A DNA stretch of 64,000 nt from an uncultured Candidatus Rokubacteria bacterium (GTDB taxonomy: Bacteria; Methylomirabilota; Methylomirabilia; Rokubacteriales; DASRDR01), in NCBI GenBank assembly GCA_963826115.1, contig CAWGVS010000006.1, positions 576,001 through 640,000 of the forward strand. The letters run 5' to 3'. The notes below the pieces were generated by a model, which saw only the letters and a program-made list of their open reading frames with translations, was not told where the DNA came from and ran no database searches. The translations under genes were made by a program, and so were the position numbers. Shown here piece by piece: positions 17,721 through 48,044 of this stretch (position 1 is the first letter of the stretch; each line of letters starts with the position of its first letter).

Positions 17721-18858
17721 GCCGGAGGGCGGCATGACCCCGGCCGGGGCCCGGCCCACGACGCGCGCCCTGGTCAACTACTTCCTCTATCTCGGCAGCC
17801 TGGGATTCGGGGGGCCGGTGGCGCTGGTCGGCTACATGCAGCGGGACCTCGTCGAGCGTCGCGGGTGGTTCACGAAGGAGGAGTACATGAAGTCCCTGGC
17901 GCTCGCCCAGCTGGCGCCGGGACCGCTGGCCGCGCAGCTGGCGATCTGCCTCGGCTACGTGCACTCGCGGATCACGGGGGCGACTGTGGTGGCGCTCGCG
18001 TTCGTCCTGCCGTCGTTCGGCATGACGGTGGCGATCAGCTGGCTCTACGTCCGCTTCGGCGGGCTCACGTGGATGCAGGCCGCGTTCTACGGCGTCGGGG
18101 CGGCGGTGATCGGGATCATCGTGCTCGCCGCCTACAAGCTGGCGAAGCTCACGATCGCCAAGGATCGGCTGCAGTGGGTGATCTTCGCGGTCCTCGCGGT
18201 GTCGACGGCGTGGACCGAGTCGGAGATCCTCTGGCTCTTCCTGCTCGCGGGGGTCGTCTCGATGGTGGCGTCGGCGCCGCCGGCGTGGCTCAAGCGGTCG
18301 GCGCCGGCGTGCCTCGCGGTGGCGGCCACGCCCGAGCTGCTCGCCCAGATCCTGCTCTTCTTCGCCAAGGCCGGCGCGTTCGTGTTCGGCAGCGGGCTCG
18401 CGATCGTGCCGTTCCTCTACGGCGGGGTGGTCCAGGAGTACGGCTGGCTCAACGACAAGCAGTTCCTGGACGCCGTCGCGGTCGCCATGCTGACGCCCGG
18501 CCCGATCGTCATCACCGTGGCCTTCATCGGCTATCTCGTGGCGAGCTTTCCCGGGGCGGTCGCGGCGGCGGTCGGCGTCTTCCTTCCGGTCTACCTGTTC
18601 GTCGTGATCCCGTACCCCTTCTTCGACCGCATCAGCGCCAACGTGAAGGTCAAGGCGTTCGTGGCGGGCGTGACGGCGGCGGCCTCCGGCACCATCGCGG
18701 GCGCCTGCTTCGTCCTCGCCCGCCGCGCCATCGTCGACGTGCCCACCCTCGTGATCGCGCTCGCGGTCCTCGGCATCACGTGGCGCTTCAAGGTGCCAGA
18801 ACCCCTGCTCATCGCGGCGGGCGCCGCGGCGGGCCTCGTCATCGTGTCACTGGGATGA
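17713..18858 (+). CDS. chrA: Chromate efflux transporter (two-domain CHR family)
   Basis: GSLGFGG, AQLAPGP, GAFVFGSG, TPGP motifs in two homologous halves. Confidence 0.95.
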   Translation: MTEPEGGMTPAGARPTTRALVNYFLYLGSLGFGGPVALVGYMQRDLVERRGWFTKEEYMKSLALAQLAPGPLAAQLAICLGYVHSRITGATVVALAFVLPSFGMTVAISWLYVRFGGLTWMQAAFYGVGAAVIGIIVLAAYKLAKLTIAKDRLQWVIFAVLAVSTAWTESEILWLFLLAGVVSMVASAPPAWLKRSAPACLAVAATPELLAQILLFFAKAGAFVFGSGLAIVPFLYGGVVQEYGWLNDKQFLDAVAVAMLTPGPIVITVAFIGYLVASFPGAVAAAVGVFLPVYLFVVIPYPFFDRISANVKVKAFVAGVTAAASGTIAGACFVLARRAIVDVPTLVIALAVLGITWRFKVPEPLLIAAGAAAGLVIVSLG

Positions 18859-18872
18859 GGAGCGTGCCATGA
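18855..18872 (+). other. Bridge mini-ORF MRSVP* linking the chrA stop to the chrF start
   Basis: ATG overlaps the chrA TGA; its TGA overlaps ATG 18869. Confidence 0.45.
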
Positions 18873-19690
18873 AGTGGATCACTCGTGAACGTGCGCGGGT
18901 CGACCGGATCGCCTGCCCCTGGCTGATCACGCGGTTCATCGATCCGAAGCCGGAGTTTCTCTTCGTCCCGGCCAATCAGGTGCTCGAGGCGGCGACGCGC
19001 GAGGGCGCGACCGCCTACGACATCCCCAGGGTCGAGCTGGGGCACCACGGGCCGGAATGCTCCTTCGACGCGTTCGTCGCGCGGTACGAGCTGGCGGATC
19101 CGGCCCTCGCCGGGCTGGCGCGCATCGTGCGGGGGGCCGATACCGACGACCGGGCGCTGACGCCGGAATCGGCGGGGCTCTACGCCGCGGCCACCGGATT
19201 CCAGGCGACGAGCCGGGACGACTTCGACAACATGGCGCGCCAGTTCCCGCTGTACGATGCCCTCTACGCGTACTGCCGGGCGCAGAGCCCGACACCGGCG
19301 ATGCCCCGGGTGCTGTTCGTCTGTCTCCACGGGGCGGCCAAGAGCGTCATCGGGGCGTCGCACTTCCGCCGGCTGGCCGCTGCCCGGGGCCTCGCGATGG
19401 ACGCGGTGGCCGCTGGCACGGAGCCCGACCCGGAGCTCGCGCCCGGGGCGGTGAAGGGGCTCGCCGGCGAGGGATTCTCGGCCACACCGAGCCGACCGCG
19501 GCCGGTCACGCTCTACGACCTGGCCAGCGCGTCGCGCATCGTCAGCTTCGGCTGCGACGTCGCCCCGGCGAAGGGCCAGCGGGTCGACCGCTGGGACGTG
19601 CCCGCGGTGAGCGACGGCTACGCCGCCGCGCGCGACCGCATCGTGGCGAACGTGGAGCGGCTGGTCTCGGAGCTCGCGGCCGGACGCTGA
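18869..19690 (+). CDS. chrF: ChrF (ChrB C-terminal-like) domain fused to an LMW-PTP/ArsC-like domain
   Basis: MKWITRER.RVDRIACPWLI.RFID, CSFDAF; then VLFVCLHGAAKS, AGTEP, SFGC, DRWDVP. Confidence 0.85.
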   Translation: MKWITRERARVDRIACPWLITRFIDPKPEFLFVPANQVLEAATREGATAYDIPRVELGHHGPECSFDAFVARYELADPALAGLARIVRGADTDDRALTPESAGLYAAATGFQATSRDDFDNMARQFPLYDALYAYCRAQSPTPAMPRVLFVCLHGAAKSVIGASHFRRLAAARGLAMDAVAAGTEPDPELAPGAVKGLAGEGFSATPSRPRPVTLYDLASASRIVSFGCDVAPAKGQRVDRWDVPAVSDGYAAARDRIVANVERLVSELAAGR

Positions 19691-19728
19691 CGCGCCGGCC
19701 CCCGACGAGCCCACGGCCCGAGCGCGCC

Positions 19729-20946
19729 TTAGCGCCGGGGCTCGATCGCCTGGAGGGCCTCGGCGGCGGCCTCCCGGACGCGCTCGTCAGGGTCGCGGAG
19801 GCCGGGCCGGAGCGCCGGCACGGCGTCGCGCGCCACCGGGCCCATCAGGCCGAGCGCGCGCGCGGCATTGATGCGGACCTGGCGGTCCGGATCCTGGCCG
19901 AAGGCCGCCGAGAGCGCCGGTACCGCCTCGCGCGCGGGCGGCGAGTGGAACCCCATCAGTCCGAACGCGGCCTCGGCCCGGACCTCGGCGTTGGGGTCGC
20001 GGAGCGTCTCCACCAGCGCGGCGATGGCCCCGCGCGGCGGCGCCTCCATGGACCGGAACGACGAGGCGGCCACCTTGCGCACGCCGGGCTCCGGGTCCTT
20101 GAGCGCGACCAGGAGGGCGGGCGTGACGCCCGGCCCGCCGTTCGGCTGCTGCCCGAGCCGCGTGAGCGTGTAGACGGCGTTCGTTCGCACGTCCGGCTCG
20201 GGGTCCCGGAGCATGGCGGCGAGCGGAGCGATCGCCTCGCGCGGCGGGGGCGCGAGAAAGCCGAGCGCCTGCGCCGCGAACGCTCGCTGCGCCGGATTGT
20301 TCGCGGGCTTGAGACCGTCCACCAGCAGGGGCATGAGGCGGCGGTCGTTGCTCTGCTGCTCGATGACCTTCCGCAGGGTCGATTGCGGGCGGTCGGAGAG
20401 CGAGTTCCCGAACGGCGTCCCGACCTCGGCGAAGAGCGTCGGGAAGATCTCGACGGCCGGCGCGGTGCCCGCGAGCCCCACCGCCGCGTTGTGGCGCGTC
20501 AGGGGATCGGGATCGCCGAGACTCGCGCGGAACGCCGGCGTCCACGCCCGCGGGTCCGCCTTGAGCTTCTTGAGGGTCCAGCCCATGTCCACGCGCGCCG
20601 GGCCGTCCGGCTCGGCGGCGACGGCCGTGGTCAGGACGGGCACGATCTGCGCCGCGGCGCCGTCGTAGCGCATGAGCGCGTCCGCCGCCCGGCGCCGCAC
20701 CCGCGGGTCGGGGTCCCGGACCGCGCGGAGCAGCGGGTCCACGGCCTCGGGCAAGGGCGCGAGGTCGCCGAGGGTCTTCGCGGCCTGCGCGCGGACCTGG
20801 GGGTCCTTGCTCTCGCGGATGTCGGTGAGCGCGCGGTCGGCCCGCTCCCGAGGCGTCTCTGGCTGGCCCCCGTCGAGGGCCGCGCAGCCCGCCGCCAGGA
20901 CGGCGCCGAGCAGGGCGAGGACGGCGAGCGTCGCGCGCATCCTCAT
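19729..20946 (-). CDS. HEAT-repeat lipoprotein
   Basis: Lipobox LAAGC; repeated L.DPDP.VR..AA.AL units. Confidence 0.88.
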   Translation of the reverse strand: MRMRATLAVLALLGAVLAAGCAALDGGQPETPRERADRALTDIRESKDPQVRAQAAKTLGDLAPLPEAVDPLLRAVRDPDPRVRRRAADALMRYDGAAAQIVPVLTTAVAAEPDGPARVDMGWTLKKLKADPRAWTPAFRASLGDPDPLTRHNAAVGLAGTAPAVEIFPTLFAEVGTPFGNSLSDRPQSTLRKVIEQQSNDRRLMPLLVDGLKPANNPAQRAFAAQALGFLAPPPREAIAPLAAMLRDPEPDVRTNAVYTLTRLGQQPNGGPGVTPALLVALKDPEPGVRKVAASSFRSMEAPPRGAIAALVETLRDPNAEVRAEAAFGLMGFHSPPAREAVPALSAAFGQDPDRQVRINAARALGLMGPVARDAVPALRPGLRDPDERVREAAAEALQAIEPRR

Positions 20947-21866
20947 GGCTTCGGCGCCGGCGCGCCGCCCCGGGCCGGCGCCGCGCGCAGGATGTCCTCC
21001 GCCCGGGCGCGGTAGCTCTTGTGCGCGGTGTCGACCGGCGTGTCGCCGAGCCGGTTCCGCGCCTTCGTGTCGGCGCCGTACTTGAGGAGCACCTCCAGCA
21101 TCTCCACCGCGTCCTGGCGGGCCGCGACGTGGAGGGGCGTGTCGCCGTCCGAGTCCTTCGGGCTGGCCGACGCGCCCCCGCGCAGGAGGGCCTCCACGAT
21201 CGGCCGGTTGTTGGCCGCCACCGCCTCGTGGAGGGGCGTCCGCCCGTTCTTGGCGGCGACGTCGGGCTTCGCGCCGGCCGAGAGGAGCACCTCGACGTTC
21301 GCGAGACCCTGGGCGCGGCCGGCCGCGAGGAAGAGCGCGGTCTCGCCCGCGGCGTCCACGGCGTCGGGGCGCGCGCCCGCCTTGAGGAGCACCGTCGCGA
21401 TGGAAGGCCGCGGCTCGCCGGCGCGCCCGGTCGTCTCGTGGAGGGCGGTCCGCCCGTCGCGACAGACGAGCGTCGCGTCCGCGCGCGCCCCGAGGATGTC
21501 GGCGACGTTCGAGGGATAGCCCTCGTTGGCGGCCACGCAGAGCGCGGTGTCGCCGTTCTTCGCCTGGGCGTTCACGGGCGCGCCGGCCTTGAGCAGGAGG
21601 CCGAGGGTCTTCCCGTCGCGCTGGCGCGCGGCGTGGTGGAGCGCCGTCCAGCCCGCGCGCCAGCCGCTCGGCTCGGCCGCGTCGGGGCGGACGCCCGCCT
21701 CGAGCAGGAGCCCCACGATCTCCACGTCGTCGCGGGAGGCCCGCAGGAGGAGCTCCTGCGGGGTGAGCGCGATCAGGCGGGACTCGAGCGTCTTGCGGGC
21801 GCGCGCGGCGTCCGCCGCCGCCGTGACGGCCACCAGCGCCGTCAGGGCGACGAGCGCCGCCCGCAT
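20943..21866 (-). CDS. Exported ankyrin-repeat protein
   Basis: Signal peptide from ATG 21866; repeats G.TALH.AA...LL..GA; ATGA overlap with the HEAT gene. Confidence 0.9.
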   Translation of the reverse strand: MRAALVALTALVAVTAAADAARARKTLESRLIALTPQELLLRASRDDVEIVGLLLEAGVRPDAAEPSGWRAGWTALHHAARQRDGKTLGLLLKAGAPVNAQAKNGDTALCVAANEGYPSNVADILGARADATLVCRDGRTALHETTGRAGEPRPSIATVLLKAGARPDAVDAAGETALFLAAGRAQGLANVEVLLSAGAKPDVAAKNGRTPLHEAVAANNRPIVEALLRGGASASPKDSDGDTPLHVAARQDAVEMLEVLLKYGADTKARNRLGDTPVDTAHKSYRARAEDILRAAPARGGAPAPKP

Positions 21867-21927
21867 CGCGCGGGCCGAGCGGAACCCCGGGCCGGATTCC
21901 ACGATTCGCCGGGCGGGACGGACCGCG

Positions 21928-22389
21928 CTAGAGGCCCGCGCGCTGGCGCCAGGCGAGGATCTGGCCGGCGTGCTCGCGGTAGTGGTGGGGGCCGTTCAGG
22001 TCCACCACGCGCGTTGCGGTCTTGTCGGGCCCGAAGCGCGACTCGGGGACCGCGGCGGCCGCGGCGAGGAAGTCACGGTGGGACGCGTCGAGCGCCGCGC
22101 GGAGGCCCGCGACGGTCAGGCCGCGCCGCGCGCCGACCAGACGCGCGTTCCAGCCGTCGAGATCCGCGTAGCTCACGCCGTCGGCGAGCGGCTTCTCCCC
22201 GCGCGCGATGCGCTCGAGCACCGGGATCATCTCGCGATGCCAGCCGGTGATGTGCGCGAGGATCTCGCGGATGCCCCAGGTCCCGAACCAGGGCCGTCGC
22301 ATGGCCTCGTCGTCGAGCCCCACCAGGGCGCGCTTCAAGGCCCCGAGATCGTCGTCGGCCCGTCGGAGGAGGTCGGCCTTCAGGCTCAT
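21928..22389 (-). CDS. DinB-like four-helix-bundle protein (ClbS/DfsB-like)
   Basis: WGIREILAHITGW, DGWNA, HHYREH. Confidence 0.8.
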   Translation of the reverse strand: MSLKADLLRRADDDLGALKRALVGLDDEAMRRPWFGTWGIREILAHITGWHREMIPVLERIARGEKPLADGVSYADLDGWNARLVGARRGLTVAGLRAALDASHRDFLAAAAAVPESRFGPDKTATRVVDLNGPHHYREHAGQILAWRQRAGL

Positions 22390-22462
22390 CGCGCCCGAGG
22401 GTAGCACGATCCGGACGGCCGGCGCGGCGATGCTGGGTGGCGCGCGTGGTAGGCTCGGGGAC

Positions 22463-22885
22463 GTGGTCGAGCACACCACGACCGTCCAGGTGCGCTGGGG
22501 CGACGCGGATCCCGCGGGGATCGCGTTCTACCCGCGCTTCTTCGAGTGGTACGACATCGGCACCGAGGCCCTCTTCGCCTCGCTGGGCCTCGCGTGGCCC
22601 GAGGCGTTCCCGCGCTACGGGATCGTCGGCGTGCCCATCCTGGAGGCGGGGTCGCGCTTCGTCTCGCCGGTCCGCTACGGCGACGCCGTCGCGGTCCGGA
22701 CGCGCGTCGCGTGGGTGCGCGGGAAGACGTTCCGCGTCGAGCACGAGCTCTCCGTCGGCGCCCGCCGCTGCGCCGAGGGCTTCGAGGTCCGGGCCTGGGT
22801 GGCGCGCCCGGAGTCGCCGGACGCGTCTCTCCGCGCCCTCCCCATCCCGCCCGACGTCGTCGCGAAGCTCACCGGCGGCGACTGA
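22463..22885 (+). CDS. Acyl-CoA thioesterase (4-HBT/YbgC family)
   Basis: VRWGDADPAGIAFYPRFFEW, F.SP.RYGD. Confidence 0.9.
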   Translation: MVEHTTTVQVRWGDADPAGIAFYPRFFEWYDIGTEALFASLGLAWPEAFPRYGIVGVPILEAGSRFVSPVRYGDAVAVRTRVAWVRGKTFRVEHELSVGARRCAEGFEVRAWVARPESPDASLRALPIPPDVVAKLTGGD

Positions 22886-22914
22886 GCCGCCGGCCCGCGG
22901 CGCGGCCGCGGCGA

Positions 22915-23040: not shown

Positions 23041-23051
23041 GGCGCCTCCCG

Positions 23052-23882
23052 CTACTGCTTCACCGCGCCGAAGGTGAGCCCGGTGACGATGTGGCGCTGG
23101 ACGATCAGCGCCAGCACGAGGACCGGGAGCGTGATCATCGTCGCCGCGGCGGCCAGCGTGCCCCAGTTGATCTCCTCGTAGGAGATCATGTTGAAGACGG
23201 CGATCGGAAGGGTGCGGGTCTCACGGCCGGCCAGGATCACCGAGAAGAGGAAGTTGTTCCACGAGAACACGAACGACAGGATCGCCGTCGCCATCACCCC
23301 CGGCCGCACCAGCGGCAGGGCCACGCGCCAGAACACGCCGAAGTAGGAGCAGCCGTCGATCAGCGCGGCGTCCTCCAGGTCGGGCGGCACGTCCTCGAAG
23401 AAGCCGATCATGACCCAGATGATGATCGGGAGGCCCACGATCAGGTGCGTCAGGATGAGCGCCGCGTGCGTGTCCACCAGCCTGAGCTGCCGGAAGAAGA
23501 TGTACCAGGGGATGAGATACGAGATGCCGGGGATGATCCGGGCCACCAGCACGGTAAGCGCGAGGCGCTGCTGCCGCCAGCGCGCGATGGAGTAGGCGGC
23601 GGGGAGCCCGACGGCCAGGCCGAGCGCCGTGCAGCCGGCGGCCACCACGAGGCTGTTCCAGGTGTAGAGGAGGAACGGATACTTCGTGAAGACCTCCCGG
23701 TAGCCCTTCAGGGTCAGGCTGAACCAGAAGAAGGACGGCGGATAGGCCGTCGCCTCCACCTGGGGCTTCAGCGACAGCGTGAACATCCAGTAAAAGACGA
23801 ACACCGTCGGGAACATGAAGAGCGCGGCCAGCGCGTAGAACCCGGCCGTGCGGAGCGCGCTGCGCCGGCCCCGGCTCACCAT
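23052..23882 (-). CDS. Carbohydrate ABC transporter permease (MalG-like)
   Basis: LEDAALIDGC EAA loop, FSWNNF, GLTFGAVK. Confidence 0.95.
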   Translation of the reverse strand: MVSRGRRSALRTAGFYALAALFMFPTVFVFYWMFTLSLKPQVEATAYPPSFFWFSLTLKGYREVFTKYPFLLYTWNSLVVAAGCTALGLAVGLPAAYSIARWRQQRLALTVLVARIIPGISYLIPWYIFFRQLRLVDTHAALILTHLIVGLPIIIWVMIGFFEDVPPDLEDAALIDGCSYFGVFWRVALPLVRPGVMATAILSFVFSWNNFLFSVILAGRETRTLPIAVFNMISYEEINWGTLAAAATMITLPVLVLALIVQRHIVTGLTFGAVKQ

Positions 23883-24817
23883 GCGGCGGTCCGCCGGAGC
23901 TTGATCAGGATCAGCGAGGTGCCCATCACGATGGCGAACAGGGCCACCGCCATGGACGACGCGTAGCCCATGTTGAAGTACGAGAAGGCCTGGTTGAAGA
24001 GCAGGATGTTGATCGTCTCCGTCGAGTTCGCGGGCCCGCCCTGCGTCATGATGAAGATGATGTCGAACGTCTTGATGGCGTCGATGGCGCGGAACAGGAT
24101 CGCGACCACCAGGGCCGGCCGGAGGAGGGGCAGCGTGATGTGCCAGAACGACTGGAGCGCGGAGGCCCCGTCGATCCGCGCGGCCTCGTAGGGTTCCTGG
24201 GGCAGGCTCGCCAGCCCGGCGAGGGCGATCAGCATGATGAGCGGCGTCCACTGCCAGATGTCCACCACGGCCAGCGCGTAGAGCGCCGTCCCGCTGGAGT
24301 AGGTCCACTTGAACGGCGCCAGGTGGAGCACCGACAGGAGGTAGTTCGCCACTCCCAGCGTCGGGTGGTACATCATCACGAACACGAGCCCGATGGCGAC
24401 CGGCGTCGCCACCATCGGCAGGATCGCGAGCGTCCGCAGGAGGCCGCGCCCCCAGAATTCACGGTTGAAGAGGAGCGCCATCGCGACGCCGAGCACCGCC
24501 TCGCCGGCGACCACCAGGGCGGTGAAGTAGAGCGTGCGGACCACCGCCATCTGGAACCGGGGATCGCCGAAGAGGATCTTCCGATAGTTCGCGAGGCCGA
24601 CGAGCTTCGGCGGCGTCAGGCTGGAGGCGAACCAGTCCTGCAGGCTCATCCACACCGTGTAGACCACGGGGTAGACGATGATCGCCGCGACCAGGAGGAC
24701 GGCCGGCGCCGGGAAGATCCAGCGGGCGTGCCGATGCAGCCAGCGCCCGAGGCGGCCCGACGCGGTCGGGGCCGGCCCGCGCGCGGCCAGATCCGTGGTC
24801 GCCGCCGGGATGCTCAC
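23876..24817 (-). CDS. Carbohydrate ABC transporter permease (MalF-like)
   Basis: VGLANY, DIWQWTP, YEAARIDGA, TQGGP. Confidence 0.95.
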   Translation of the reverse strand: MSIPAATTDLAARGPAPTASGRLGRWLHRHARWIFPAPAVLLVAAIIVYPVVYTVWMSLQDWFASSLTPPKLVGLANYRKILFGDPRFQMAVVRTLYFTALVVAGEAVLGVAMALLFNREFWGRGLLRTLAILPMVATPVAIGLVFVMMYHPTLGVANYLLSVLHLAPFKWTYSSGTALYALAVVDIWQWTPLIMLIALAGLASLPQEPYEAARIDGASALQSFWHITLPLLRPALVVAILFRAIDAIKTFDIIFIMTQGGPANSTETINILLFNQAFSYFNMGYASSMAVALFAIVMGTSLILIKLRRTAAW

Positions 24818-24888
24818 GGACGCCCGGACGAGCGTCCCCGGCCGACCTGGTCGAGGCGGCCGGGGACGCCGGATCGAGCGGCGCTCAT
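24814..24888 (-). other. Bridge mini-ORF MSAARSGVPGRLDQVGRGRSSGRP* linking the SBP stop to the permease start
   Basis: ATG overlaps the SBP TGA; its TGA overlaps GTG 24817. Confidence 0.45.
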
Positions 24889-26237
24889 CCTTCGGTTTTG
24901 TTCAGCATGTCCTGGAATTCCTTCTGCGCCTCGGCGAGCACCTGGGCGGAGGGGGCGCCTTCGATGGCCTTCTGGATCGCCACGCCGATGATGTCGCGGT
25001 ACTCGGTCACCCCCACGATCTCGGGGAGCCCGAGCCGGCCGATCTTGAGCGCATCCTGGTATGCCTGGTACCAGTCCGCCGGCATCTTGGGCTTCGCCTT
25101 GACCTCGGGATCCGTCCAGGGCGAGTTGCGTGCGACGCCGACGCCGGCCAGAAGCTCGCGCGCCGCGTTCGGCTTGTTGGTGGCCCACTGGGCGAACAGG
25201 AAGGCGGCCTCCTTGTTCCGGGACTGGGTCGAGACCGCCATGCCGGTCCCGTACAGGGACGAGAACGCCCCGGCCGGCCCCGGCGGCATCGCGACGTAGC
25301 CCACCTTCCCGACGATCTTCGACTTCGTCGCGTCCTCGAACTGGTTCGCGAAGTTGATGCCGTCGAAGTACGTGGCGACCTGGCCCTGCATGAACGACGC
25401 GGAGCACTCGTACCAGTTGAAGTTGATCACGCCGGGTGGGCCGTACTTCCGGAGCACACCCGCGTACCAGTCGAGCGCCGCGACGTTCTCCTTGCTGTCG
25501 AGCGCGGCCTTGCCGTCCTTCGTGAGGAAGTCCGCGCCGAACGAGAACTGCGTGTTGCTGAACATGGTGGCGTTCGCGTTCTTGAGCCCGCGGAAGACGG
25601 CGCCGTACATGCCGGGCGGGGTGTGGAACTGCTTGGCCTGCGCTTCCCACTCGGCATGGCTCTTCGGCGGCTTCAGGCCCTTCTGGGCGTACAGGTCCTT
25701 CCGGTAGAAGAGAATGACCGCGTCGACGAAGGCCGGGAGGGCGGAGATGCTGCCGTCCTTCTGCGTGATGATCGACTTGGCGCCGCCGGCGATGTCGTCG
25801 AAGTCCCAGTCGGCCGGCGTCAGCGTCCGGTCCTGGAGGAACCGGTTCAGGGGCTCGTACCAGCCGGCCTTCCAGAAGCGCTTCTTCTCCACGTGGAGCG
25901 AGGTGAAGAATCCGTCGACACCGCCGGAGGCCGAGGTCATCTCGACGACGAGCTTCTGGCGAGCCTGGATCTCGGGCAGGGTCTCCCACTTGATCTTCAT
26001 CCCCGAGAGCGACTCGAACTCCGGGATGTTCTTCTCCAGCACCTCGACCCAGGGGTGCTTGGAGAGGATGAGGAACAGCTCCTTGCCCTGGAAGCGTTTC
26101 CAGTTGAAGCCCTGGGCGCGGGCCGGCGTGAAGACGAACGGCCCGGCGGCGGCCGAGGCCAGCGCCGTCGCGCCGAGGCGGAGCGCCGTGCGTCGAGAGA
26201 GTGTCCCCGGGTTCGCTGTCGTCTCTTCGTGGGCCAT
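24885..26237 (-). CDS. Sugar ABC substrate-binding protein with Tat signal (paralog 1)
   Basis: SRRTALRLG Tat motif; LFYRKDL, SBP family 1 pattern; SD AAGGAGG. Confidence 0.92.
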   Translation of the reverse strand: MAHEETTANPGTLSRRTALRLGATALASAAAGPFVFTPARAQGFNWKRFQGKELFLILSKHPWVEVLEKNIPEFESLSGMKIKWETLPEIQARQKLVVEMTSASGGVDGFFTSLHVEKKRFWKAGWYEPLNRFLQDRTLTPADWDFDDIAGGAKSIITQKDGSISALPAFVDAVILFYRKDLYAQKGLKPPKSHAEWEAQAKQFHTPPGMYGAVFRGLKNANATMFSNTQFSFGADFLTKDGKAALDSKENVAALDWYAGVLRKYGPPGVINFNWYECSASFMQGQVATYFDGINFANQFEDATKSKIVGKVGYVAMPPGPAGAFSSLYGTGMAVSTQSRNKEAAFLFAQWATNKPNAARELLAGVGVARNSPWTDPEVKAKPKMPADWYQAYQDALKIGRLGLPEIVGVTEYRDIIGVAIQKAIEGAPSAQVLAEAQKEFQDMLNKTEG

Positions 26238-35938: not shown

Positions 35939-37009
35939 ATGCGCGTCGGCTACTTCACGATGCCCCTCCATCCCCCCGGCGCCGATCCCGGCCGCACGAT
36001 GGCCGACGACCTCGAGCAGCTCGTCTTCCTCGACGGGCTCGGCTACGAGGAGGCGTGGATCGGCGAGCACATCACGGCGGAGTGGGAGAACATCCCGTGC
36101 CCGGACCTCTTCATCGCCCAGGCGCTCGGGATGACGCGTCGGATGAAGCTCGGGACCGGCGTCTCGTGCCTCCCGAACCACAACCCGCTGATGCTGGCGC
36201 AGCGCATCGCGCAGCTCGACCAGATGGCGCGCGGCCGGTTCCTGTGGGGTGTCGGCTCGGGCGGGTTCCCGGGCGACCTCGAGCTGTTCGAGCTCGACTC
36301 GAAGGCCGGAGAGCACCGCGCGGTCACGCGCGCGATGCTGGACCTCGTCCTCGACCTCTGGAACGACCCGAAGCCCGGGGTCTACGAGGCGCCGCGCTGG
36401 CGGTTCCGCGTCCCGGAGCCGCAGGAGGACATCGCGCTCCGGCTCCACCTCCGGCCGTACCAGCGGCCCCACCCGCCGATCGCGGTCGCGGGGGTGACGG
36501 AGAAGTCGGACACGCTCGCGCTGGCCGGCGAGCGCGGCTACATCCCGATGAGCATCAACTTCGTGCCGCCGCGCGTCCTCAAGACCCACTGGGCCTCGAT
36601 CGAGGCCGGCGCGCGCCAGGGCGGGCGGGTGGCCGACCGCGGGACCTGGCGCATCGCCCGCGACGTCTTCATCGCCGACACGACGGCGGAGGCGCGCCGG
36701 CAGGCGCTCACCGGCAACATGGCTCGCGACTGGACCGGCTACTTCTTCCCGCTCCTCCGCAAGGGGCGGGGGCTCGACGTCATGAAGCAGGACCCCGCCA
36801 TGCCGGACAGCGCGCTCACGCTCGAGTACCTCGCCGACCACCTGTGGCTGGTCGGCGACCCCGACGAGGTCGTGCGGAAGATCCGCGCGCTCCGCGACGA
36901 GGTCGGCGACTTCGGCACGCTCCTCGTCATCGGCCACGAGTGGGAGCCGCGGGAGGCGTGGACGAAGTCCATGCGGCTCCTGGTCGACGACGTGCTCCCC
37001 CGGCTGTGA
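35939..37009 (+). CDS. LLM-class flavin-dependent oxidoreductase
   Basis: FTMPLHPP, EAWIGEH, LDQMARGR, PYQRPHPP; SD GGAGG. Confidence 0.92.
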   Translation: MRVGYFTMPLHPPGADPGRTMADDLEQLVFLDGLGYEEAWIGEHITAEWENIPCPDLFIAQALGMTRRMKLGTGVSCLPNHNPLMLAQRIAQLDQMARGRFLWGVGSGGFPGDLELFELDSKAGEHRAVTRAMLDLVLDLWNDPKPGVYEAPRWRFRVPEPQEDIALRLHLRPYQRPHPPIAVAGVTEKSDTLALAGERGYIPMSINFVPPRVLKTHWASIEAGARQGGRVADRGTWRIARDVFIADTTAEARRQALTGNMARDWTGYFFPLLRKGRGLDVMKQDPAMPDSALTLEYLADHLWLVGDPDEVVRKIRALRDEVGDFGTLLVIGHEWEPREAWTKSMRLLVDDVLPRL

Positions 37010-37038
37010 CCCTCGCCCGACAGGAGAACGCCCCGTGA
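37006..37038 (+). other. Bridge mini-ORF (M)TLARQENAP* linking the LLM stop to the DSD1 start
   Basis: GTG overlaps the LLM TGA; its TGA overlaps GTG 37035. Confidence 0.45.
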
Positions 37039-38147
37039 CCACGCGCGCGCCCGCCGTCGTCGGAACGCCCGTCGCCGAGATCGACACGCCCGCGCTCGTC
37101 GTCGACCTCGACGCCTACGAGCACAACCTGGACCTGATGGCCGCGTCGCTCGCCGGCAAGCCGGTCCGCCTCCGCGGCCACGCCAAGACCCACAAGTGCC
37201 CCGTCGTCGCGCTCCACCAGATCGCCCGGGGCGCCGTCGGGTCCTGCTGCCAGAAGGTGAGCGAGGCCGAGGCGATGGTCGCCGGCGGCGTGCGGAACGT
37301 CCTCGTCTCCAACGAGATCGTGGACCGCCGCAAGATCGACCGGCTCGTCGCCCTCGCCCGGCAGGCCGAGGTCTCGGTGTGCGTCGACGACCCCCGGAAC
37401 GTCGACGACCTCGACGCGGCCGCGCGCGCCGCCGGCGTGCGCCTGGCGGTCCTGGTCGAGATCGACGTCGGCAACCTCCGGTGCGGCGTCGCGCCCGGCG
37501 AGCCCGCGGTCGCGCTGGCCCGGCACGTGGCGGCGAAGCGCGGGCTCCGGTTCGCGGGGCTCCAGGCCTACTACGGCCGCGCGCAGCACATCAACGAGGA
37601 GGAGAAGCGCCGGGCGGCGATCGACACGTGCATCGCCGACGTGCGGCACACCGTCGACCTCCTCGCGCGGGAGGGGCTCGCCTGCGAGATGGTGTCGGGC
37701 GCCGGGACCGGCAGCTACCGCTGGGAGGCGGCGAGCGGCGTCTACAACGAGGTCCAGGCCGGCTCCTACTGCTTCATGGACGTGGAGTACGGGCTCGTCG
37801 AGGGCTTCCCGCGCGAGTTCCGGCAGTCGCTCTTCGTCCTGGCGGCCGTCATGAGCCGCCCGGCCCCCGAGCGCGCGGTGGTCGACGCCGGGCTGAAGGC
37901 GCTCTCCGTCGACAAGGGAATGCCGCGCGTCCACGGCCTCGCCGGCGTCGAGTTCCAGCGGGCGTCGGACGAGCACGGCGTGCTGCATGTCGGGCCCGGC
38001 GCCCAGGGCCTCAGCCTCGGCGACCGCGTGTGGCTGATCCCCGGCCACTGCGACCCGACCATCAACCTCTACGACTGGTACGTCGCGGTCCGCGACGGCC
38101 GGGTCGAGGCCCTCTGGCCGATCACCGCGCGCGGCGCGGTCCTGTGA
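37035..38147 (+). CDS. DSD1/D-threonine aldolase family PLP enzyme (3-hydroxy-D-aspartate aldolase-like)
   Basis: TPAL, HAKTHK, CCQK, GAGTG, SDEHG, PGHCDPT. Confidence 0.92.
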   Translation: MTTRAPAVVGTPVAEIDTPALVVDLDAYEHNLDLMAASLAGKPVRLRGHAKTHKCPVVALHQIARGAVGSCCQKVSEAEAMVAGGVRNVLVSNEIVDRRKIDRLVALARQAEVSVCVDDPRNVDDLDAAARAAGVRLAVLVEIDVGNLRCGVAPGEPAVALARHVAAKRGLRFAGLQAYYGRAQHINEEEKRRAAIDTCIADVRHTVDLLAREGLACEMVSGAGTGSYRWEAASGVYNEVQAGSYCFMDVEYGLVEGFPREFRQSLFVLAAVMSRPAPERAVVDAGLKALSVDKGMPRVHGLAGVEFQRASDEHGVLHVGPGAQGLSLGDRVWLIPGHCDPTINLYDWYVAVRDGRVEALWPITARGAVL

Positions 38148-40497: not shown

Positions 40498-40826
40498 GGA
40501 AGGGACCGTTGCGCCGGGGCGGGCTGGTCGTCCGCCCCGCCGATCACCGCGGCGACTTCTTCCGGGTCCTGCAGGAGACGGAGCGGAGCCAGACCGCGGT
40601 CATGACCGTCGCGCCCGGCCAGGACGCGGGCCCCGAGGAGACCCACGTCGCCGACCAGATCCTCTACGTGATCGAGGGCCAGGCCGAGGTGCGCATCGGG
40701 ACGGAGCTCGCGATCGCCGGTCCCGGGACGCTCGTCACGATCCCCGCGGGGACGCCTCACCACGTCCGGAGCACGGGCGCGGTCTCGCTCTTCTTCCTCA
40801 CGGTCTACGCCCCGCCGGAGTACTGA
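40494..40826 (+). CDS. Cupin domain protein
   Basis: EETH.ADQ.LYVIEG, IPAGTPH, YAPPEY. Confidence 0.9.
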   Translation: MRKGPLRRGGLVVRPADHRGDFFRVLQETERSQTAVMTVAPGQDAGPEETHVADQILYVIEGQAEVRIGTELAIAGPGTLVTIPAGTPHHVRSTGAVSLFFLTVYAPPEY

Positions 40827-40885
40827 GCACCCGGCGAGACGCGTGGTGAGGCGGCCGGCGCCCCGCCCGCCTCGGCGTGCCGCCG

Positions 40886-42941: not shown

Positions 42942-43040
42942 GTGCGGCTCGGCCCGCCCGCTTCCCCGCGCGGCGCTCCCGCGCCCGGCCGGCGGCCGGG
43001 CGCCCGGCCGGGGGCCGGCGGCCTCCCCGGTTCGCGGGAG

Positions 43041-43487
43041 CTAGCGGCGGCGCTTCGCGGGCGCGCGGCGGGCCGGCTTCCGGGCCCGCGACGCGGCGCG
43101 CGCCGGCGGCATCGCGGCGACGGTCCGGATCTCGATCAGGAGCCCCGCGCGCGGCAGGACGGCCTGCACCGTCGTCCGCGCCGGCGGGTCCGTCGGGAAG
43201 AAGGTCTTGTAGACCTCGTTGAACGCCGCGAAGTCGCCGATGTCGGAGAGGAGGCACAGGCACTCGATCGAGTGCGCGAGCGAGGTGCCGGCCGCCTTGA
43301 GGATCGCCTCGACGTTCTGGAGCACCTGCCGCGTCTGCTCGCGGATGCCGCCGGCCACGATCTGGCTCGTGGCGGGGTCGAGCGCGACCTGCCCGGCCAC
43401 GTAGACGAGATCGCCGTGACGGATGCCCTGGGAGTAGGGGAGACCGGTGCGGGGGCCCTTGTCGGTGCTGATGACCTGGCGCTTCAT
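43041..43487 (-). CDS. RidA family protein with basic C-terminal tail
   Basis: PYSQG, VAGQV, FNEVY, PPART, IEI; SD GGAGGAG. Confidence 0.92.
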   Translation of the reverse strand: MKRQVISTDKGPRTGLPYSQGIRHGDLVYVAGQVALDPATSQIVAGGIREQTRQVLQNVEAILKAAGTSLAHSIECLCLLSDIGDFAAFNEVYKTFFPTDPPARTTVQAVLPRAGLLIEIRTVAAMPPARAASRARKPARRAPAKRRR

Positions 43488-43655
43488 GTGCTCCTCCGTC
43501 GTGGGTCGAGGCGGGCCCGGCGGCCGACGGGACGGGCCGTCCTCGTGCGCGCGGGCGAGGGGCGTCGGCCGGCCGTCAGGGTGGCACGGTTCCCCGTGGC
43601 CGGCAACCGGTCGGCGTCGTCGCGCGCCGGGCGGGCCGGGCCTCTGCCGGATCGC

Positions 43656-45002
43656 CTAGAGTAGCCCTTGCAGATGCTGCTCGATCGCGCGCTTCAGCGA
43701 CTGCCCGGTCGTTTCGTCGCGCGACGCGGCCAACGGCCAGTCGATGGGCCGCCCGAGGCGGGACTCCACCGTCGCCCGCTGCGCCGGATCTCTCATGCCC
43801 GCGCGGACCAGGAAGTCCGTCATGGGGCCGTGTCGCATGGCTGCACGCGCCTCCTCCCTGCTGCGGAGGCTCGTCACCGGCGACAGCGTCACCTCTCGTT
43901 CGTCCAAGGGTGGGAACCGGAACGCCGCTCGGGGTGGCGGCTGGTTCGCGGTGATCTTCGTCATCTCGATGGCAAACTGACTGTCGAAATCCATGACGCG
44001 AAGCCACGAGTACGCGACCGGCTTGGCCGGATCGACGACGGCCTCGAGTTGTCTGCCTCCCGCGGCCGCCCCCGAGAGCAGGAATCGCTGCCCTCCCAGG
44101 CTCCGGACCGACTGCCGCCACCCCGGGCCGCCCACCAGCGAGGTCAGCGTCAGCCGCACGCCCGCCTCGGCGCTCCCCGCGCTCAACAGTTCGGCCCCAT
44201 GGTGCAGTTGGGTCTCGGTCACCTCGACGCGGACTTCCCAATCCCCGTGCCACAGGCTCGGCCCGTCGAGGGGGTTGTACGTCAGGATCCGATCCCCGAT
44301 CCCGACGAACGCAGGAACCCCGTCATGGAGGATGACGCAAGCCCGGTCGGAGGGTGCCTCGACCCAGCACCACACGGCGACCGGGAACTGCGTCGGCTCC
44401 TTCCCGATCAGGGTCCGAGCCGCGAACGCGAAGGACCGGAGCGTCGTCCGGTGCGAGTCGAGGTCGGGGGCGAGTCCCACCAGCCGCTCGGCCAGGTCGT
44501 CTCTGCGCTGGCGATACTCTCGGCTGAAGTTCTGAGCGAGACGACTCCGCGTCGTCTCGTCAGCCTCGGCCACGACCCGGTCGATCGGTCGCCCGGTCAC
44601 GGGGTGAAACAGCCACTGGAGGTCGTCGTCGAGGAGGAACAGAGAGCACGTGCCCCTGGTGTTCGCCGCTTGATCGCGCTGGCACCTGCCCATGGCCGCG
44701 GCTCCGGCGGACTCTCGGGACGTCTGGCTGTGCGCGATGAAGTAGGGTCCCGCGGAGTTCCAGGCCCACGCGCGATGCCGTGGGAACGCGAAGTACTGGT
44801 CAAGGGCTCGCTCCGCGTCATCCGCCGAGAACATGGGGAGCGCGAGGCCGCCCGGTGGCCGCATGGCTCTCGGATCCGACTGTGTCGCGCAGCTGGCGGC
44901 CACGAGGAGGCACGCGCTCGCGAGCGCCGCGGCCAGAGGCCTCGAATGAGGCCGATCGGTGAGGGGAGTGTTGTCCCGGGACCGGGCCCGCCTACCGGAC
45001 AA
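43656..45002 (-). CDS. Hypothetical putative lipoprotein; atypical composition
   Basis: 448-aa ORF; LVAASC lipobox-like; more A/T-ending codons than the flanks; start uncertain. Confidence 0.65.
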   Translation of the reverse strand: MSGRRARSRDNTPLTDRPHSRPLAAALASACLLVAASCATQSDPRAMRPPGGLALPMFSADDAERALDQYFAFPRHRAWAWNSAGPYFIAHSQTSRESAGAAAMGRCQRDQAANTRGTCSLFLLDDDLQWLFHPVTGRPIDRVVAEADETTRSRLAQNFSREYRQRRDDLAERLVGLAPDLDSHRTTLRSFAFAARTLIGKEPTQFPVAVWCWVEAPSDRACVILHDGVPAFVGIGDRILTYNPLDGPSLWHGDWEVRVEVTETQLHHGAELLSAGSAEAGVRLTLTSLVGGPGWRQSVRSLGGQRFLLSGAAAGGRQLEAVVDPAKPVAYSWLRVMDFDSQFAIEMTKITANQPPPRAAFRFPPLDEREVTLSPVTSLRSREEARAAMRHGPMTDFLVRAGMRDPAQRATVESRLGRPIDWPLAASRDETTGQSLKRAIEQHLQGLL

Positions 45003-46023
45003 ATGTCGCCTGCCGCGCGGTCTCGATCGAGCGAAGGACGTCGTCGGGCTCGAAGACCCGGTGGGCGAGGAGCAGCTCGAGCTCGTGGCGGAGCGTCGTT
45101 CCGAGGAGGTACGTGCCGTCGGTGTTGACCGTCGTCCGCACGCCCGCGTCGCGGAGCGTCTGGTAGACCTCGCGGAGGTCGTCCCACCCGGCGACCGCGC
45201 GGGTCCGGAGGTTCGACGAGGGGCAGAGCTCGAGCACCGTGCCCTCGCCGCTCAGCCGTCGCATGAGCTCCTTGTTCCGGGCCGCGGCGATCCCGTGGCC
45301 GATGCGGTCGGGCTGGAGCTTCTCGAGGACGGCGAAGACGCCGTCGGCCCCGGTGTGCGAGGTCTCGCCGGTGTGGATGGTCGTGCCGAGCCCGGCGGCG
45401 CGCGCCCGCGCGAACAAGTCGTGGTAGCGGTCGACGTCGCCGCCGAACTCGAGGGTGTGCTGCTCGGGGCCGGCCAGGTCGATGCCGACCACGCCGTGGT
45501 CCCGGTAGCGCTCGGCCTTCCGCACGATGATGTCGTTCAGCTCGTAGTCGAACTCGCGGGCGAGACAGAAGATCAGCCCGGCGCGGACGCCGTAGGCGAG
45601 GCACGCGCGCTCCATCCCGTGGATGGCGGCGATGATGATGTGGTCGAGGTCCCGCTCGCCGCCCAGGTTCCGCTTCATGGGATTGAACCGGAGCTCGATG
45701 AGCGAGACGCGAGACGAGCGGTACTCCTTGCCGATGATCGAGTAGACCGAGCGCTCGATCGCCGCGGGCGACGACTGGATGCGCTCGGTCCAGCGGTGGA
45801 GGATCTCGAGGTAGGTGTCGAGCGACTGGACGCGCTCGGGGTCGGCGTACACGAGGTCGCGGAACTCCGGGTAGGTCCGGACCGGCAGCTTGAACCCGTG
45901 GTCGTGGGCGATCTCCCAGAGCACGTGGGGCGCGACCGCGGCGCCCACGTGGATGTGGAGGTCGACGAGCTCGCTGGCGTCGAGAAGCTGCCGGCCCGCG
46001 TCGGGGACGCGCGGCTCGCTCAC
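44992..46023 (-). CDS. add: Adenosine deaminase family protein
   Basis: DLHIH, DLAGPE, HTGE, RIGHG, CPSSN, NTD. Confidence 0.9.
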   Translation of the reverse strand: MSEPRVPDAGRQLLDASELVDLHIHVGAAVAPHVLWEIAHDHGFKLPVRTYPEFRDLVYADPERVQSLDTYLEILHRWTERIQSSPAAIERSVYSIIGKEYRSSRVSLIELRFNPMKRNLGGERDLDHIIIAAIHGMERACLAYGVRAGLIFCLAREFDYELNDIIVRKAERYRDHGVVGIDLAGPEQHTLEFGGDVDRYHDLFARARAAGLGTTIHTGETSHTGADGVFAVLEKLQPDRIGHGIAAARNKELMRRLSGEGTVLELCPSSNLRTRAVAGWDDLREVYQTLRDAGVRTTVNTDGTYLLGTTLRHELELLLAHRVFEPDDVLRSIETARQATFVR

Positions 46024-46067
46024 CGCGCGCTCCGGTCGGCCGCGCGGTCCGCGGGCTCCGCGCTCAT
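46020..46067 (-). other. Bridge mini-ORF MSAEPADRAADRSAR* linking the SBP stop to the deaminase start
   Basis: ATG overlaps the SBP TGA; its TGA overlaps GTG 46023. Confidence 0.45.
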
Positions 46068-47158
46068 CCGCCGACCCGGTAGGCGCGCGCCTCGGCGGCG
46101 ATCTTCTCGGGGTCGAAGCGGTTGATCTCGTCGATCAGCTCGTTGGTCACGAGCTCCTGCGCCGTCACCGCCTGCTTGATGATCGCGGTCTTCAGCATGA
46201 AGTCGGCGTAGGCCTGGTAGTTCGCCTCGGAGTTCTCGCCCCAGCGCTTGACCCCGGCCTTCTCGAGCTTCCAGTTCTGGGCGCGCGCCTGGAGCACCTT
46301 GGCGTCGTCGCGGAGCGCCGTCGCCTCGTCCTTCCCGGTGGGCTTGGTCGCCGGGAAGACGTCCCAGAGGATCCGGATGGCGGCCTCGGGGTTGGCGATG
46401 GCGAACACCGTCCCCTTCGCGTAGCTCCGCGCGAGCGCCACCGCCTCCTTGCGCCGCGCGCGCAGCGTCTCCTCGAGCGCGAGGAAGCCGTTCGACGGGA
46501 AGCGGTCGATCGCCCGCGTGTCGAGGAGCCGGAGCTTCACGCCGGCGTTCTCGACCATGGCGTACTGAGTGTCGAACTGGCTCAGCGCGTCGACCTGGCC
46601 CCCGCGGACCATGGCCGCGGTCTGGGCGCCCTCGCCGGCCACGACGATGTTGACGTCCGTGTCCGGGTTGAGCCCGATCATGCGCACGAGCTCCCGGGCG
46701 ACGAGCACGCCCCCCGATCCCATCGAGATCACCCCGATGCGCTTGCCGCGGAGGTCCCCGAGCTCCTTGACCGGGCTGTCCTGCGGCACGGCGATCCCGT
46801 AGATGTTCCCCTGGTAGGCGGTGTAGAAGATCTGCGCCTTGATGCCCTGCGGGCGGCCGATGGCCAGCGGCTCCACGCTCGGCAGGGAGAAGTCGACCTC
46901 GCGCACCGCCACGTTCTTCACGCAGTCCGTCGACCCGGGCATCGGCACCAGCTCGACGTCGATGCCCTCTTGCTTGAGCCAGCCGAGCTTGGCGGCGATC
47001 GCGAACGGCGCGGCGGCCGCCGACACCGTGCGCGCGCACCAGCCCACCTTGAGCTTCGTCAGCTGGGCGCTCGCCGGCCCCGTGAGCGCCGCGACGCCGA
47101 GCAGCAGGGAGACGGCCGCGGCCAGGGCGACGACGCGGCGGGAGCGGGACCTCACCAT
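46064..47158 (-). CDS. NitT/TauT (NMT1/SsuA-like) ABC substrate-binding protein
   Basis: Signal peptide; G..KQEGIDVE, DLRGKRIG, GQVDA, NPEAA. Confidence 0.9.
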   Translation of the reverse strand: MVRSRSRRVVALAAAVSLLLGVAALTGPASAQLTKLKVGWCARTVSAAAAPFAIAAKLGWLKQEGIDVELVPMPGSTDCVKNVAVREVDFSLPSVEPLAIGRPQGIKAQIFYTAYQGNIYGIAVPQDSPVKELGDLRGKRIGVISMGSGGVLVARELVRMIGLNPDTDVNIVVAGEGAQTAAMVRGGQVDALSQFDTQYAMVENAGVKLRLLDTRAIDRFPSNGFLALEETLRARRKEAVALARSYAKGTVFAIANPEAAIRILWDVFPATKPTGKDEATALRDDAKVLQARAQNWKLEKAGVKRWGENSEANYQAYADFMLKTAIIKQAVTAQELVTNELIDEINRFDPEKIAAEARAYRVGG

Positions 47159-48012
47159 GCGGTGACCTCCTTCTTGGCGGCGCGCGGGTCGCGCGCGAGC
47201 GACGGGGGCACGGGGGCGTCCTCTTCGGCGCGCTCGGGGGCGGCCTTCTCCGACGGGTCCCAGAAGAGCACCCGCCGGCGGACCAGCTGGATCGCCCGGC
47301 TGAGCCCGAGGCCGACGAACGAGAGCACCAGCAGCACCGAGAACTGGCCCGAGACGTCCATCGTGAAGTTCATGCTCTGGATGAGCATGCCGAGCCCGGC
47401 GGTCGCCCCGACGAACTCGCCGACGATCGCGCCGATCAGCGCGAAGATCATCGCGATGTCGAGGCCGGCCATCACGAACGGCAGCGCGTTGGGGAGCCGC
47501 AGCATCCAGAAGATCTGGCGGTCGCTGGCCGCGAGCGAGCGCATGAGGCTCACCCGGTCCTCGTCGGCCGAGCGGAGCCCGACCATCGTGTTGACGAGCA
47601 GCGGGAAGAAGGCGACCAGCGCCGCGTTGACGACCTTCGACATGAGCCCGAGGCCGAACCAGATGACGATGAGCGGCGCGAGCGCGATCTTCGGCAAGGA
47701 CTGGAACATGACGATGTACGGGTAGAGGAAGTACTCGACCCACCGGCTCATGGCGACGGCGGTGCCGAGCCCGAAGCCGAGAGCCGAGCCGACCAGGAAG
47801 CCGAGGAGCGTCTCGGTCAGCGTGTACCAGAGGTGCTTCAGGTAGAGCCCGCTCGCGAGGCCGCGCCAGAGCGCCACCGCCACCGCGGAGGGCGCGGGCA
47901 GGATGAACGGCGGGACCTGGAACCAGCGGACGGCGCCCTCCCAGAGCGCCATGGACCCGAAGAAGAAGACGGCGGTGAGGGCCAGGCTCCGGCCGCGGCC
48001 CATGCCCGTCAT
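47152..48012 (-). CDS. NitT/TauT ABC permease
   Basis: LPAPS, PKIALAPL, FFP, AIVGEF, GLG. Confidence 0.93.
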   Translation of the reverse strand: MTGMGRGRSLALTAVFFFGSMALWEGAVRWFQVPPFILPAPSAVAVALWRGLASGLYLKHLWYTLTETLLGFLVGSALGFGLGTAVAMSRWVEYFLYPYIVMFQSLPKIALAPLIVIWFGLGLMSKVVNAALVAFFPLLVNTMVGLRSADEDRVSLMRSLAASDRQIFWMLRLPNALPFVMAGLDIAMIFALIGAIVGEFVGATAGLGMLIQSMNFTMDVSGQFSVLLVLSFVGLGLSRAIQLVRRRVLFWDPSEKAAPERAEEDAPVPPSLARDPRAAKKEVTAW

Positions 48013-48044
48013 CCGTCCACTCGCCCGGACGCTGCGGCGCTCAT
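48009..48044 (-). other. Bridge mini-ORF MSAAASGRVDG* linking the SDR stop to the permease start
   Basis: ATG overlaps the SDR TGA; its TGA overlaps ATG 48012. Confidence 0.45.

Follow-up and report, generated by a model that had tools for sequence, protein, structure and literature searches.

Stop-overlapping start codons and bridging mini-ORFs between co-oriented genes of a Candidatus Rokubacteria genome

Coupling of neighbouring genes by termination-reinitiation (TeRe) is established for unidirectional gene pairs with a 4-nt ATGA or GTGA overlap, and it declines sharply as the genes move apart, with little left at a spacing of about 20 nt (Huber et al. 2023, PMC10666635). Here we consider a related arrangement in a stretch of 64,000 nucleotides from an uncultured Candidatus Rokubacteria bacterium (GenBank assembly GCA_963826115.1, contig CAWGVS010000006.1, positions 576,001 to 640,000 of the forward strand), referred to below as the window. 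At five junctions between co-oriented genes of the window a very short open reading frame (ORF) connects the stop of the upstream gene to the start of the downstream gene. In each of these mini-ORFs, which we call bridges, the start codon is an ATG or GTG that supplies the TG of the upstream gene's TGA, the A following directly after it; the stop codon is a TGA that takes its TG from the downstream gene's ATG or GTG. The NTGA stop/start overlap (N, any base) that characterises TeRe-coupled 4-nt overlaps is found at both ends of all five. In the following, RTG stands for ATG or GTG and RTGA for either of these followed by A.

The bridges have in common with the TeRe pairs, as far as the accessed part of PMC10666635 describes these, the same 4-nt stop/start overlap at each end and the same proposed restart by the terminating ribosome. 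They are unlike such gene pairs in that the partner of the upstream overlap is a frame of 2-30 codons without coding signature, and in that two overlaps are chained across a spacer. That part of PMC10666635 makes no mention of bridging ORFs or of a frame bias of positive gaps. Short ribosome-delivering ORFs and mycobacterial interspersed repetitive units (MIRUs) are described in the available portion of PMC12548453, the latter being a dispersed and apparently mobile repeat family (Supply et al. 1997, via PMC12548453). An ORF that overlaps the flanking genes at a stop/start junction, which is typical of MIRUs, is seen in all five window bridges, and the design is equal; the spacers of the window and most of the bridges reported here, however, are unique and often very short sequences between two annotated genes. 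In leaders of Mycobacterium tuberculosis, translated upstream ORFs (uORFs) overlap the annotated ORF or another uORF by 4 nt (NUGA), for which TeRe was proposed, and more than half of the downstream ORFs are without canonical initiation signals (D'Halluin et al., bioRxiv 10.1101/2022.06.01.494293, consulted in part). Those are leader uORFs derived from ribosome footprints, whereas the bridges lie between two genes, start on the upstream stop, are known from sequence and usually come with a Shine-Dalgarno motif (SD). A genome-wide frame rule sets the bridges apart from both the MIRUs and the NUGA uORFs, insofar as the sources cover these.

In the bicistronic design, an engineered arrangement with its own SD, a meaningless short ORF ends on the start of the gene of interest. 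The bridges are likewise short meaningless ORFs ending on the next start; the vector device differs in not being fed by the termination of an upstream gene. Its leader, as a short ribosome-delivering ORF of expression vectors, is treated in the accessed portion of PMC12548453. Our literature searches returned no report of a frame bias of positive intergenic gaps or of non-repeat bridge ORFs, and further papers may exist; a term search of the accessible text of an eLife paper (PMC9094748) gave no passage on reinitiation or coupling. The bridges may best be read as a variant of the MIRU-type relay ORFs that is not built from repeats. We add a genome-wide test on non-repeat spacers, together with a contrast of how far restart frames invade the next gene.

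Putative restart frames and bridges across the genome

Genes were called with a home-made program that combined in-frame dicodon log-odds, trained on long ORFs selected by GC content at third codon positions (GC3), with learned weights for start codon and SD bin, and that resolved overlaps greedily; it contained no rule on stop/start overlaps. It called 5401 genes in the 6.24-Mb genome (12 contigs; the window is 72% GC) and, without using the overlap feature, picked the same five downstream starts as the initial annotation. In all five downstream proteins the N-terminal residues align at the called starts in relatives. The genome has 4087 same-strand junctions, of which 590 are 4-nt (-4) overlaps and 2085 have gaps of 1-100 nt; bridge statistics were taken over the latter unless stated otherwise. 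For comparison we used 2 Mb of one congener (same genus) and 400 kb of a member of another family, relatives that are not independent.

The firmest result is that frames opened by a stop-overlapping ATG or GTG seldom extend into the next gene by more than 30 nt. The share of junctions whose restart frame does so was compared between junctions with a stop-overlapping RTG and junctions with no start codon at that place. At gaps of 1 mod 3 the counts in the window's genome were 23/236 versus 240/641 (p 2.5e-17), and at gaps of 0 mod 3, where a bridge is impossible, 26/78 versus 328/452 (p 7e-11). The contrast repeats in the congener, with 10/88 versus 69/189 at 1 mod 3 (p 8e-6) and 5/28 versus 122/155 at 0 mod 3 (p 1e-9), and weakly in the other family, with 5/17 versus 35/56 for both frames pooled (p 0.025). 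Its direction does not change between the four gap-length bins in the window's genome or the congener, whichever of the two frames is taken (Mantel-Haenszel z -4.1 to -8.5). Moreover, in the window's genome and the congener RTGA stops are rarer at gaps of 0 mod 3, where closing the restart frame is not cheap, occurring at 14% of junctions versus 26-30% in the other frames.

Bridges themselves are about twice as common as expected. We counted 136 of them (144 at any gap), versus 64.7 expected from independent stop type, start type and frame. The genome-wide count by gap mod 3, proposed with the initial annotation as a check, gave 30/145/35 double-RTGA junctions (0/1/2 mod 3) versus 546/912/627 for all junctions. 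With gaps of 1 mod 3, RTGA stops are followed by an RTGA start in 145/236 cases and other stops in 218/676; for the other two frames the figures are 65/242 versus 217/931. This link between the ends is specific to the frame (z = 4.46 for the difference of log odds) and persists when only junctions with an SD of at least 4 or at least 5 bases are taken. It is strongest in the gap bins 7-13 nt (45/58 vs 26/102) and 14-30 nt (38/57 vs 55/151), and weaker, not reaching significance, at 31-60 nt (32/69 vs 55/160). The congener shows the excess as well, with 43 bridges versus 22.7 expected among 725 junctions and double-RTGA counts of 15/47/15 versus 195/289/241 for all junctions.

Chance, base composition or a gene-calling artefact in TGA-rich DNA of 72% GC is an improbable source of these patterns, and several points do speak for it. 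RTGA is common at both ends, being the upstream stop in 22.9% and the downstream start in 30.9% of the 2085 junctions, and off-frame ORFs are long in high-GC DNA. The five examples were chosen by eye from a window whose count lies in the upper tail: the mean is 1.38 bridges per 64-kb window, and five or more occur in 3/104 windows. The starts come from a home-made caller, and a weak end link is present also where a bridge is impossible (30/78 vs 118/468 in the window's genome; 15/28 vs 35/167 in the congener). Against this stands the fact that gap mod 3 is the same for all in-frame starts that could be called. In addition, a test independent of start calls was positive: when the frame one base behind that of the upstream gene is read, its first stop proves to be RTGA in 182/236 cases versus 225/383 and 180/293 in the comparison sets. 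The effects persist with strong-SD starts, within gap-length bins and in the second genome, and they track the identity of the stop-overlapping codon in the order ATG, GTG > TTG > CTG, which composition does not predict. At gaps of 1 mod 3 the downstream start is RTGA in 29/47 cases after ATG, 116/189 after GTG, 16/35 after TTG, 105/348 after CTG and 97/293 after TAG/TAA.

The counts in the window's genome and the congener suggest that stop-overlapping starts are really used and that selection ends their frames at or before the next gene. In the explanation that we favour, the RTGA at a gene's TGA stop would be a live restart codon in this high-GC genome, at which a ribosome that has just terminated would reinitiate without needing an SD, as at ordinary 4-nt overlaps. 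Spacers between co-oriented genes would be under selection to keep the restart frame from entering the next gene, either by removal of the restart codon, by early closure of the frame, or by a spacer length that lets the frame end on the next start. The commonest outcome would be a spacer of 1 mod 3, with the frame ending on a TGA that overlaps the next ATG or GTG, and the product a meaningless mini-ORF of 2-30 codons with a stop/start overlap at each end. At the next start such a mini-ORF would take the ribosome out of the wrong frame and would probably hand it on for a second reinitiation. To this reading, restart at a stop-overlapping ATG or GTG with closure or hand-over at the next start, we give about an even chance. 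That ribosomes actually restart there, and that hand-over and not only closure contributes to downstream expression, we infer from the counts.

Junctions in relatives and the origin of bridges

Reciprocal best hits between the window's genome and the congener yielded 639 orthologous junction pairs (median protein identity 82%). The 32 window-genome bridges among them correspond in the congener to 10 bridges, 3 -4 overlaps, 18 other positive gaps of up to 100 nt and 1 gap of more than 100 nt. The spacers of the ten conserved bridges barely align; six have the same length, and four changed by 3, 3, 15 and 18 nt. The frame was retained in 18/32 bridges versus 68/187 for the other positive-gap classes. 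Conservation of bridges is thus real but modest, since 10 were retained versus about 6 expected from the inertia of both ends (approximately 0.69 each) and of the frame.

The five window junctions were each compared in 41 relatives. At 37006-37038 the window's genome shares the bridge with 12 of 13 congeners. The gaps there are 10, 16, 25, 67, 82 and 91 nt, all of them 1 mod 3, and the spacers are unalike; the thirteenth congener has the same 25-nt gap and a TAA stop. In the same genomes, those orthologues of junctions 1 and 2 that lack RTGA have gaps in all three frames, which makes them an internal control for the frame lock at 37006. Among wider orthologues of this junction both genes were adjacent in 3/80 loci, all three repeating junctions already counted. 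At 18855-18872 the bridge is present in the window's genome only, one of 15 loci with both genes, and the relatives have TAG, TAA or CTGA stops and gaps of 9-26 nt in all three frames. The bridge at 24888-24814 occurs in 2/16 loci, those of the window's genome and its closest relative. It arose as a 60-nt hairpin-bearing insertion into a 7-nt CTGA...GTGA spacer, which is the form found in most congeners; one congener has a -4 overlap. The bridge at 48044-48009 is also present in the closest relative, with the same length and a diverged spacer, and the adjacency of the genes is missing in the other genomes compared. For 46067-46020, the seven loci with both genes comprise two bridges (gaps 40 and 82 nt), three -4 overlaps, one in-frame extension of 53 nt and one insertion of a repeat that brings a stop in frame. 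Where an insertion is 2 mod 3 long the result there is a bridge, an insertion of 0 mod 3 gave an N-terminal extension, and none was 1 mod 3. The expectation, attached to the initial annotation, that orthologous spacers would change length only in multiples of 3 is borne out at one of the five junctions and breaks down at two or more.

All sequencing runs matched are metagenomes of relatives, and the share of the sampled words in any one of them is at most 24%. Metagenome contigs of relatives cross 37006-37038 and 46020-46067 without net length change, which is uninformative on the present assembly, and one metatranscriptome contig of a relative spans 37006-37038, which does not show transcription of this genome.

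An alternative is that bridges are evolutionary scars without present function. Insertions into former 4-nt overlaps, frameshifted N-termini or deleted genes would have left them behind, and they would be seen before decaying. The initial annotation had likewise offered in-frame scars of deleted genes as one of its two explanations. Some of the data agree with it. Bridges of the congener correspond to -4 overlaps in the window's genome in 7/23 cases, more than the other positive-gap classes do (5/98, 8/121 and 22/122 in the summed table columns), and some of the junctions in this comparison carry copies of a small repeat. Junction 4 is a -4 overlap in three of seven genomes and has different insertions in the others. 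Some bridges, 46067-46020 among them, do derive from insertion into a former 4-nt overlap; a few bridges are made by a 56-nt MIRU-like repeat family, and bridge turnover is fast. As a general account, however, we consider the scar explanation improbable. The interiors of the mini-ORFs lack coding-like codon-position composition, with GC at positions 1/2/3 of 0.69/0.78/0.82, the same as in control spacers, and scars of coding sequence were rejected on this ground. Between the flanks of the two RTGA sites the similarity does not exceed that of shuffled pairs (2.62 vs 2.61 and 2.63 vs 2.60 of 8), so that tandem duplication of the junction was rejected as an origin. Neutral insertions should fall in all three frames, whereas the double-RTGA junctions are strongly skewed to one, and scars leave unexplained both the short restart frames in the frame where no bridge can form and the frame lock over six lengths at 37006.

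Tandem copy-number variation was not seen either, there being no similarity of flanks or units at bridges, and the length variants at 37006 are unalike. Membership of the five window spacers in a repeat family was rejected, as searches in the own genome and in the 2 Mb of the congener gave only short GC-rich matches. Unique sequence makes up the five window spacers and most of the 136 bridges, many of which are only 4-25 nt long; among those inspected of the 74 bridge spacers of at least 22 nt, at least three share a repeat family.

A dispersed repeat of about 56 nt, with a unit that runs from one RTGA to the next, was found outside the window at C5:1280326-1280385, with similar copies at C5:1527519, C10:337083, C6:357371, C12:466304 and C4:209492. 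One copy forms a bridge with a gap of 52 nt. At C11:93246-93396 three copies stand in tandem with a 56-nt period (2 mod 3), in which each unit is a would-be chained mini-ORF. This family looks MIRU-like. The congener has a junction repeat of its own, with a short GGCC hairpin.

That the mini-ORFs encode functional micropeptides or amino-acid-sensing leader peptides is very improbable. Three of the five peptides do start with MSA (24888-24814, 46067-46020 and 48044-48009), as noted initially. Conservation of the peptides was not found in relatives, where sequence and length vary even at retained bridges, with six lengths at 37006 and 9 of 24 residues differing at 24888-24814 in the closest relative. 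Coding-like composition is lacking, as described above, and a search of Rfam over window positions 18000-49000 gave 0 matches at the gathering score.

Proposed closure and hand-over at the next start

A narrower explanation is that bridges serve damage limitation only: restart happens and the wrong frame is closed early, the exact form being merely the commonest site of a first TGA, while the downstream gene uses its own SD and receives no ribosome from the bridge. The congener speaks for it, as closure takes place there without extra preference for the exact stop-on-start form (45/78 vs 0.56 in controls) and without a frame-specific link of the two ends (log odds 0.57 vs 0.60). The same holds for the SD: motifs of at least 4 bases lie ahead of 64-67% of bridged starts versus 46-54% at other junctions. 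We nevertheless regard closure alone as rather unlikely. In the window's genome the exact form is over-represented among early closures, 138/213 of which fall precisely on the next start versus 0.47 in controls, and the junction at 37006 retains this form, not just any early stop, in 13/14 genomes. In addition, RTGA starts are about two-fold commoner in the connecting frame whatever the upstream stop (0.40-0.45 vs 0.18-0.33), and in both genomes this holds with strong-SD starts too (0.44-0.45).

Several of our own results weigh against the reading of restart followed by closure or hand-over. All gene calls stem from a simple home-made caller rather than a curated annotation. The two null results of the congener just given belong here, and the preference for the exact stop-on-start form beyond early closure is accordingly confined to the window's genome. 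The other family (400 kb, 117 junctions) shows no excess of bridges, with 3 versus 2.3 expected, in a sample that is uninformative. Selection against in-frame stops was looked for in the bridge frames and is not detectable, 136/145 being open versus 130.4 expected from shuffled spacers. Turnover is fast, 22 of 32 bridges not being bridges in the congener, with retention moderately above inertia, and four of the five window bridges are young or recurrent. Finally, the high frequency of SD motifs counts against the reading as well: because 64-67% of the bridged genes have one, a relay is not needed for initiation, and a bridge adds to an SD and does not replace one.

Of the initial interpretation, that ribosomes are relayed across spacers by dedicated linker ORFs, the relay fits the statistics (the two-fold excess of bridges, the short restart frames and the frame lock at 37006). 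It falls short of proof, and the preference for the exact form is seen in one genome only. The word dedicated goes beyond the data and is an overstatement, because most bridged genes retain their own SD.

If stop-overlapping starts do restart, with or without a following gene, operon spacers would not be free to drift in length, and the synonymous choice of a last codon ending in G or A versus C would have consequences for the next gene. RTGA stops would then have to be treated as initiation sites by gene callers and by designers of operons. It would also reconcile the loss of reinitiation within about 20 nt, as given in the accessed part of PMC10666635, with the many operon genes that are spaced further apart. 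In its widest form, which we put forward tentatively and rate somewhat short of an even chance, every AUG or GUG that overlaps a UGA stop in high-GC bacteria would be a live restart site. Operon spacers would obey a frame rule: the restart frame either dies at once or, with a spacer of 1 mod 3, has its end on the start of the following gene. Relay ORFs, unannotated, sequence-free and numbering hundreds (approximately 2-3% of genes here), would then constitute a general, undescribed layer of coupling across spacers too long for direct reinitiation.

Features of the window and further observations

Inspection of the sequence placed the five bridges at the coordinates and on the strands first reported, with the same peptide lengths and with gaps that are indeed all 1 mod 3 (Table 1). 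The genes that flank them are ordinary by Pfam. The closest relatives of one window protein are metagenome-assembled genomes of Candidatus Rokubacteria / Methylomirabilota, with 91, 82, 78 and 73% identity.

Table 1. Genes and bridge mini-ORFs at the five bridged junctions (positions in the window)
Feature	Positions	Strand	Gap (nt)	Basis and remarks
Junction 1 upstream gene, chromate transporter family	17713..18858	+		PF02417, E 3e-78; own gene call; stop GGA-TGA preceded by A (ATGA)
Bridge mini-ORF 1, MRSVP	18855..18872	+	10	sequence; AGGAG 5 nt ahead of next start
Junction 1 downstream gene, ChrB C-terminal domain protein	18869..19690	+		PF09828; start ATGA, retained as ATGA in relatives
Junction 2 upstream gene, ABC solute-binding protein	24885..26237	-		PF01547; own gene call; stop ATGA
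Bridge mini-ORF 2, 24 aa	24814..24888	-	67	sequence; spacer with strong hairpin, 13-bp stem
Junction 2 downstream gene, ABC permease	23876..24817	-		PF00528; own gene call and relatives; start GTGA
Junction 3 upstream gene, luciferase-like monooxygenase	35939..37009	+		PF00296; own gene call; ORF open from 35900; stop GTGA
Bridge mini-ORF 3, 10 aa	37006..37038	+	25	sequence; AGGAG 9 nt ahead of next start
Junction 3 downstream gene, alanine-racemase-N / D-serine-dehydratase-like	37035..38147	+		PF01168, PF14031; start GTGA
Junction 4 upstream gene, NMT1/THI5-like binding protein	46064..47158	-		PF09084; own gene call; longest ORF reaches 47743; stop ATGA
Bridge mini-ORF 4, 15 aa	46020..46067	-	40	sequence
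Junction 4 downstream gene, adenosine-deaminase family	44992..46023	-		PF00962; start GTGA
Junction 5 upstream gene, short-chain dehydrogenase	48041..48877	-		PF00106; own gene call; stop ATGA
Bridge mini-ORF 5, 11 aa	48009..48044	-	28	sequence
Junction 5 downstream gene, ABC permease	47152..48012	-		PF00528; own gene call; start ATGA

Two statements of the initial annotation need correction. SD-like GGAG motifs lie ahead of three downstream genes (18869, 37035 and 46023) and not of two. Nor is it exact that an operon-internal RTGA stop always forms either the start of the following gene or a bridge: the 16 same-strand junctions of the window with an RTGA stop comprise 5 -4 overlaps, 5 bridges and 6 that are neither (gaps 158, 2, -7, 11, -7 and 765). 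The ABC-transporter operons of bridges 2 and 5 also contain two 7-nt overlaps (ATGG..TGA) after RTGA stops, at 23876-23882 and 47152-47158 on the minus strand; at both, the next gene was called from a start other than the stop-overlapping RTG.

The second mini-ORF folds at -49 kcal/mol and contains a perfect inverted repeat of 13 bp at 24826-24870 (minus strand) that is not followed by a T run; neither a terminator nor a promoter was found at 24700-25000. Elsewhere in the window, at 40824-40884, a 59-nt stretch separates two convergent genes, and soil-metagenome contigs of relatives from two runs carry 353 other letters at that place.

Short gaps between co-oriented genes have a 3-nt periodicity throughout the genome. 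Gaps of 1, 4, 7 and 10 nt occur 55, 63, 57 and 59 times, those of 0, 3, 6 and 9 nt 21, 49, 22 and 40 times, and those of 2, 5, 8 and 11 nt 56, 39, 36 and 32 times. A second genome-wide observation concerns the base before the stop. G or A precedes the TGA at 22% of convergent gene ends and at 37% of the ends where a co-oriented gene follows more than 150 nt away, compared with 45% of all codon third positions. The low value at convergent ends may mean that restart codons are generally avoided where the last gene of a unit ends; alternatively, the stop context may be responsible.

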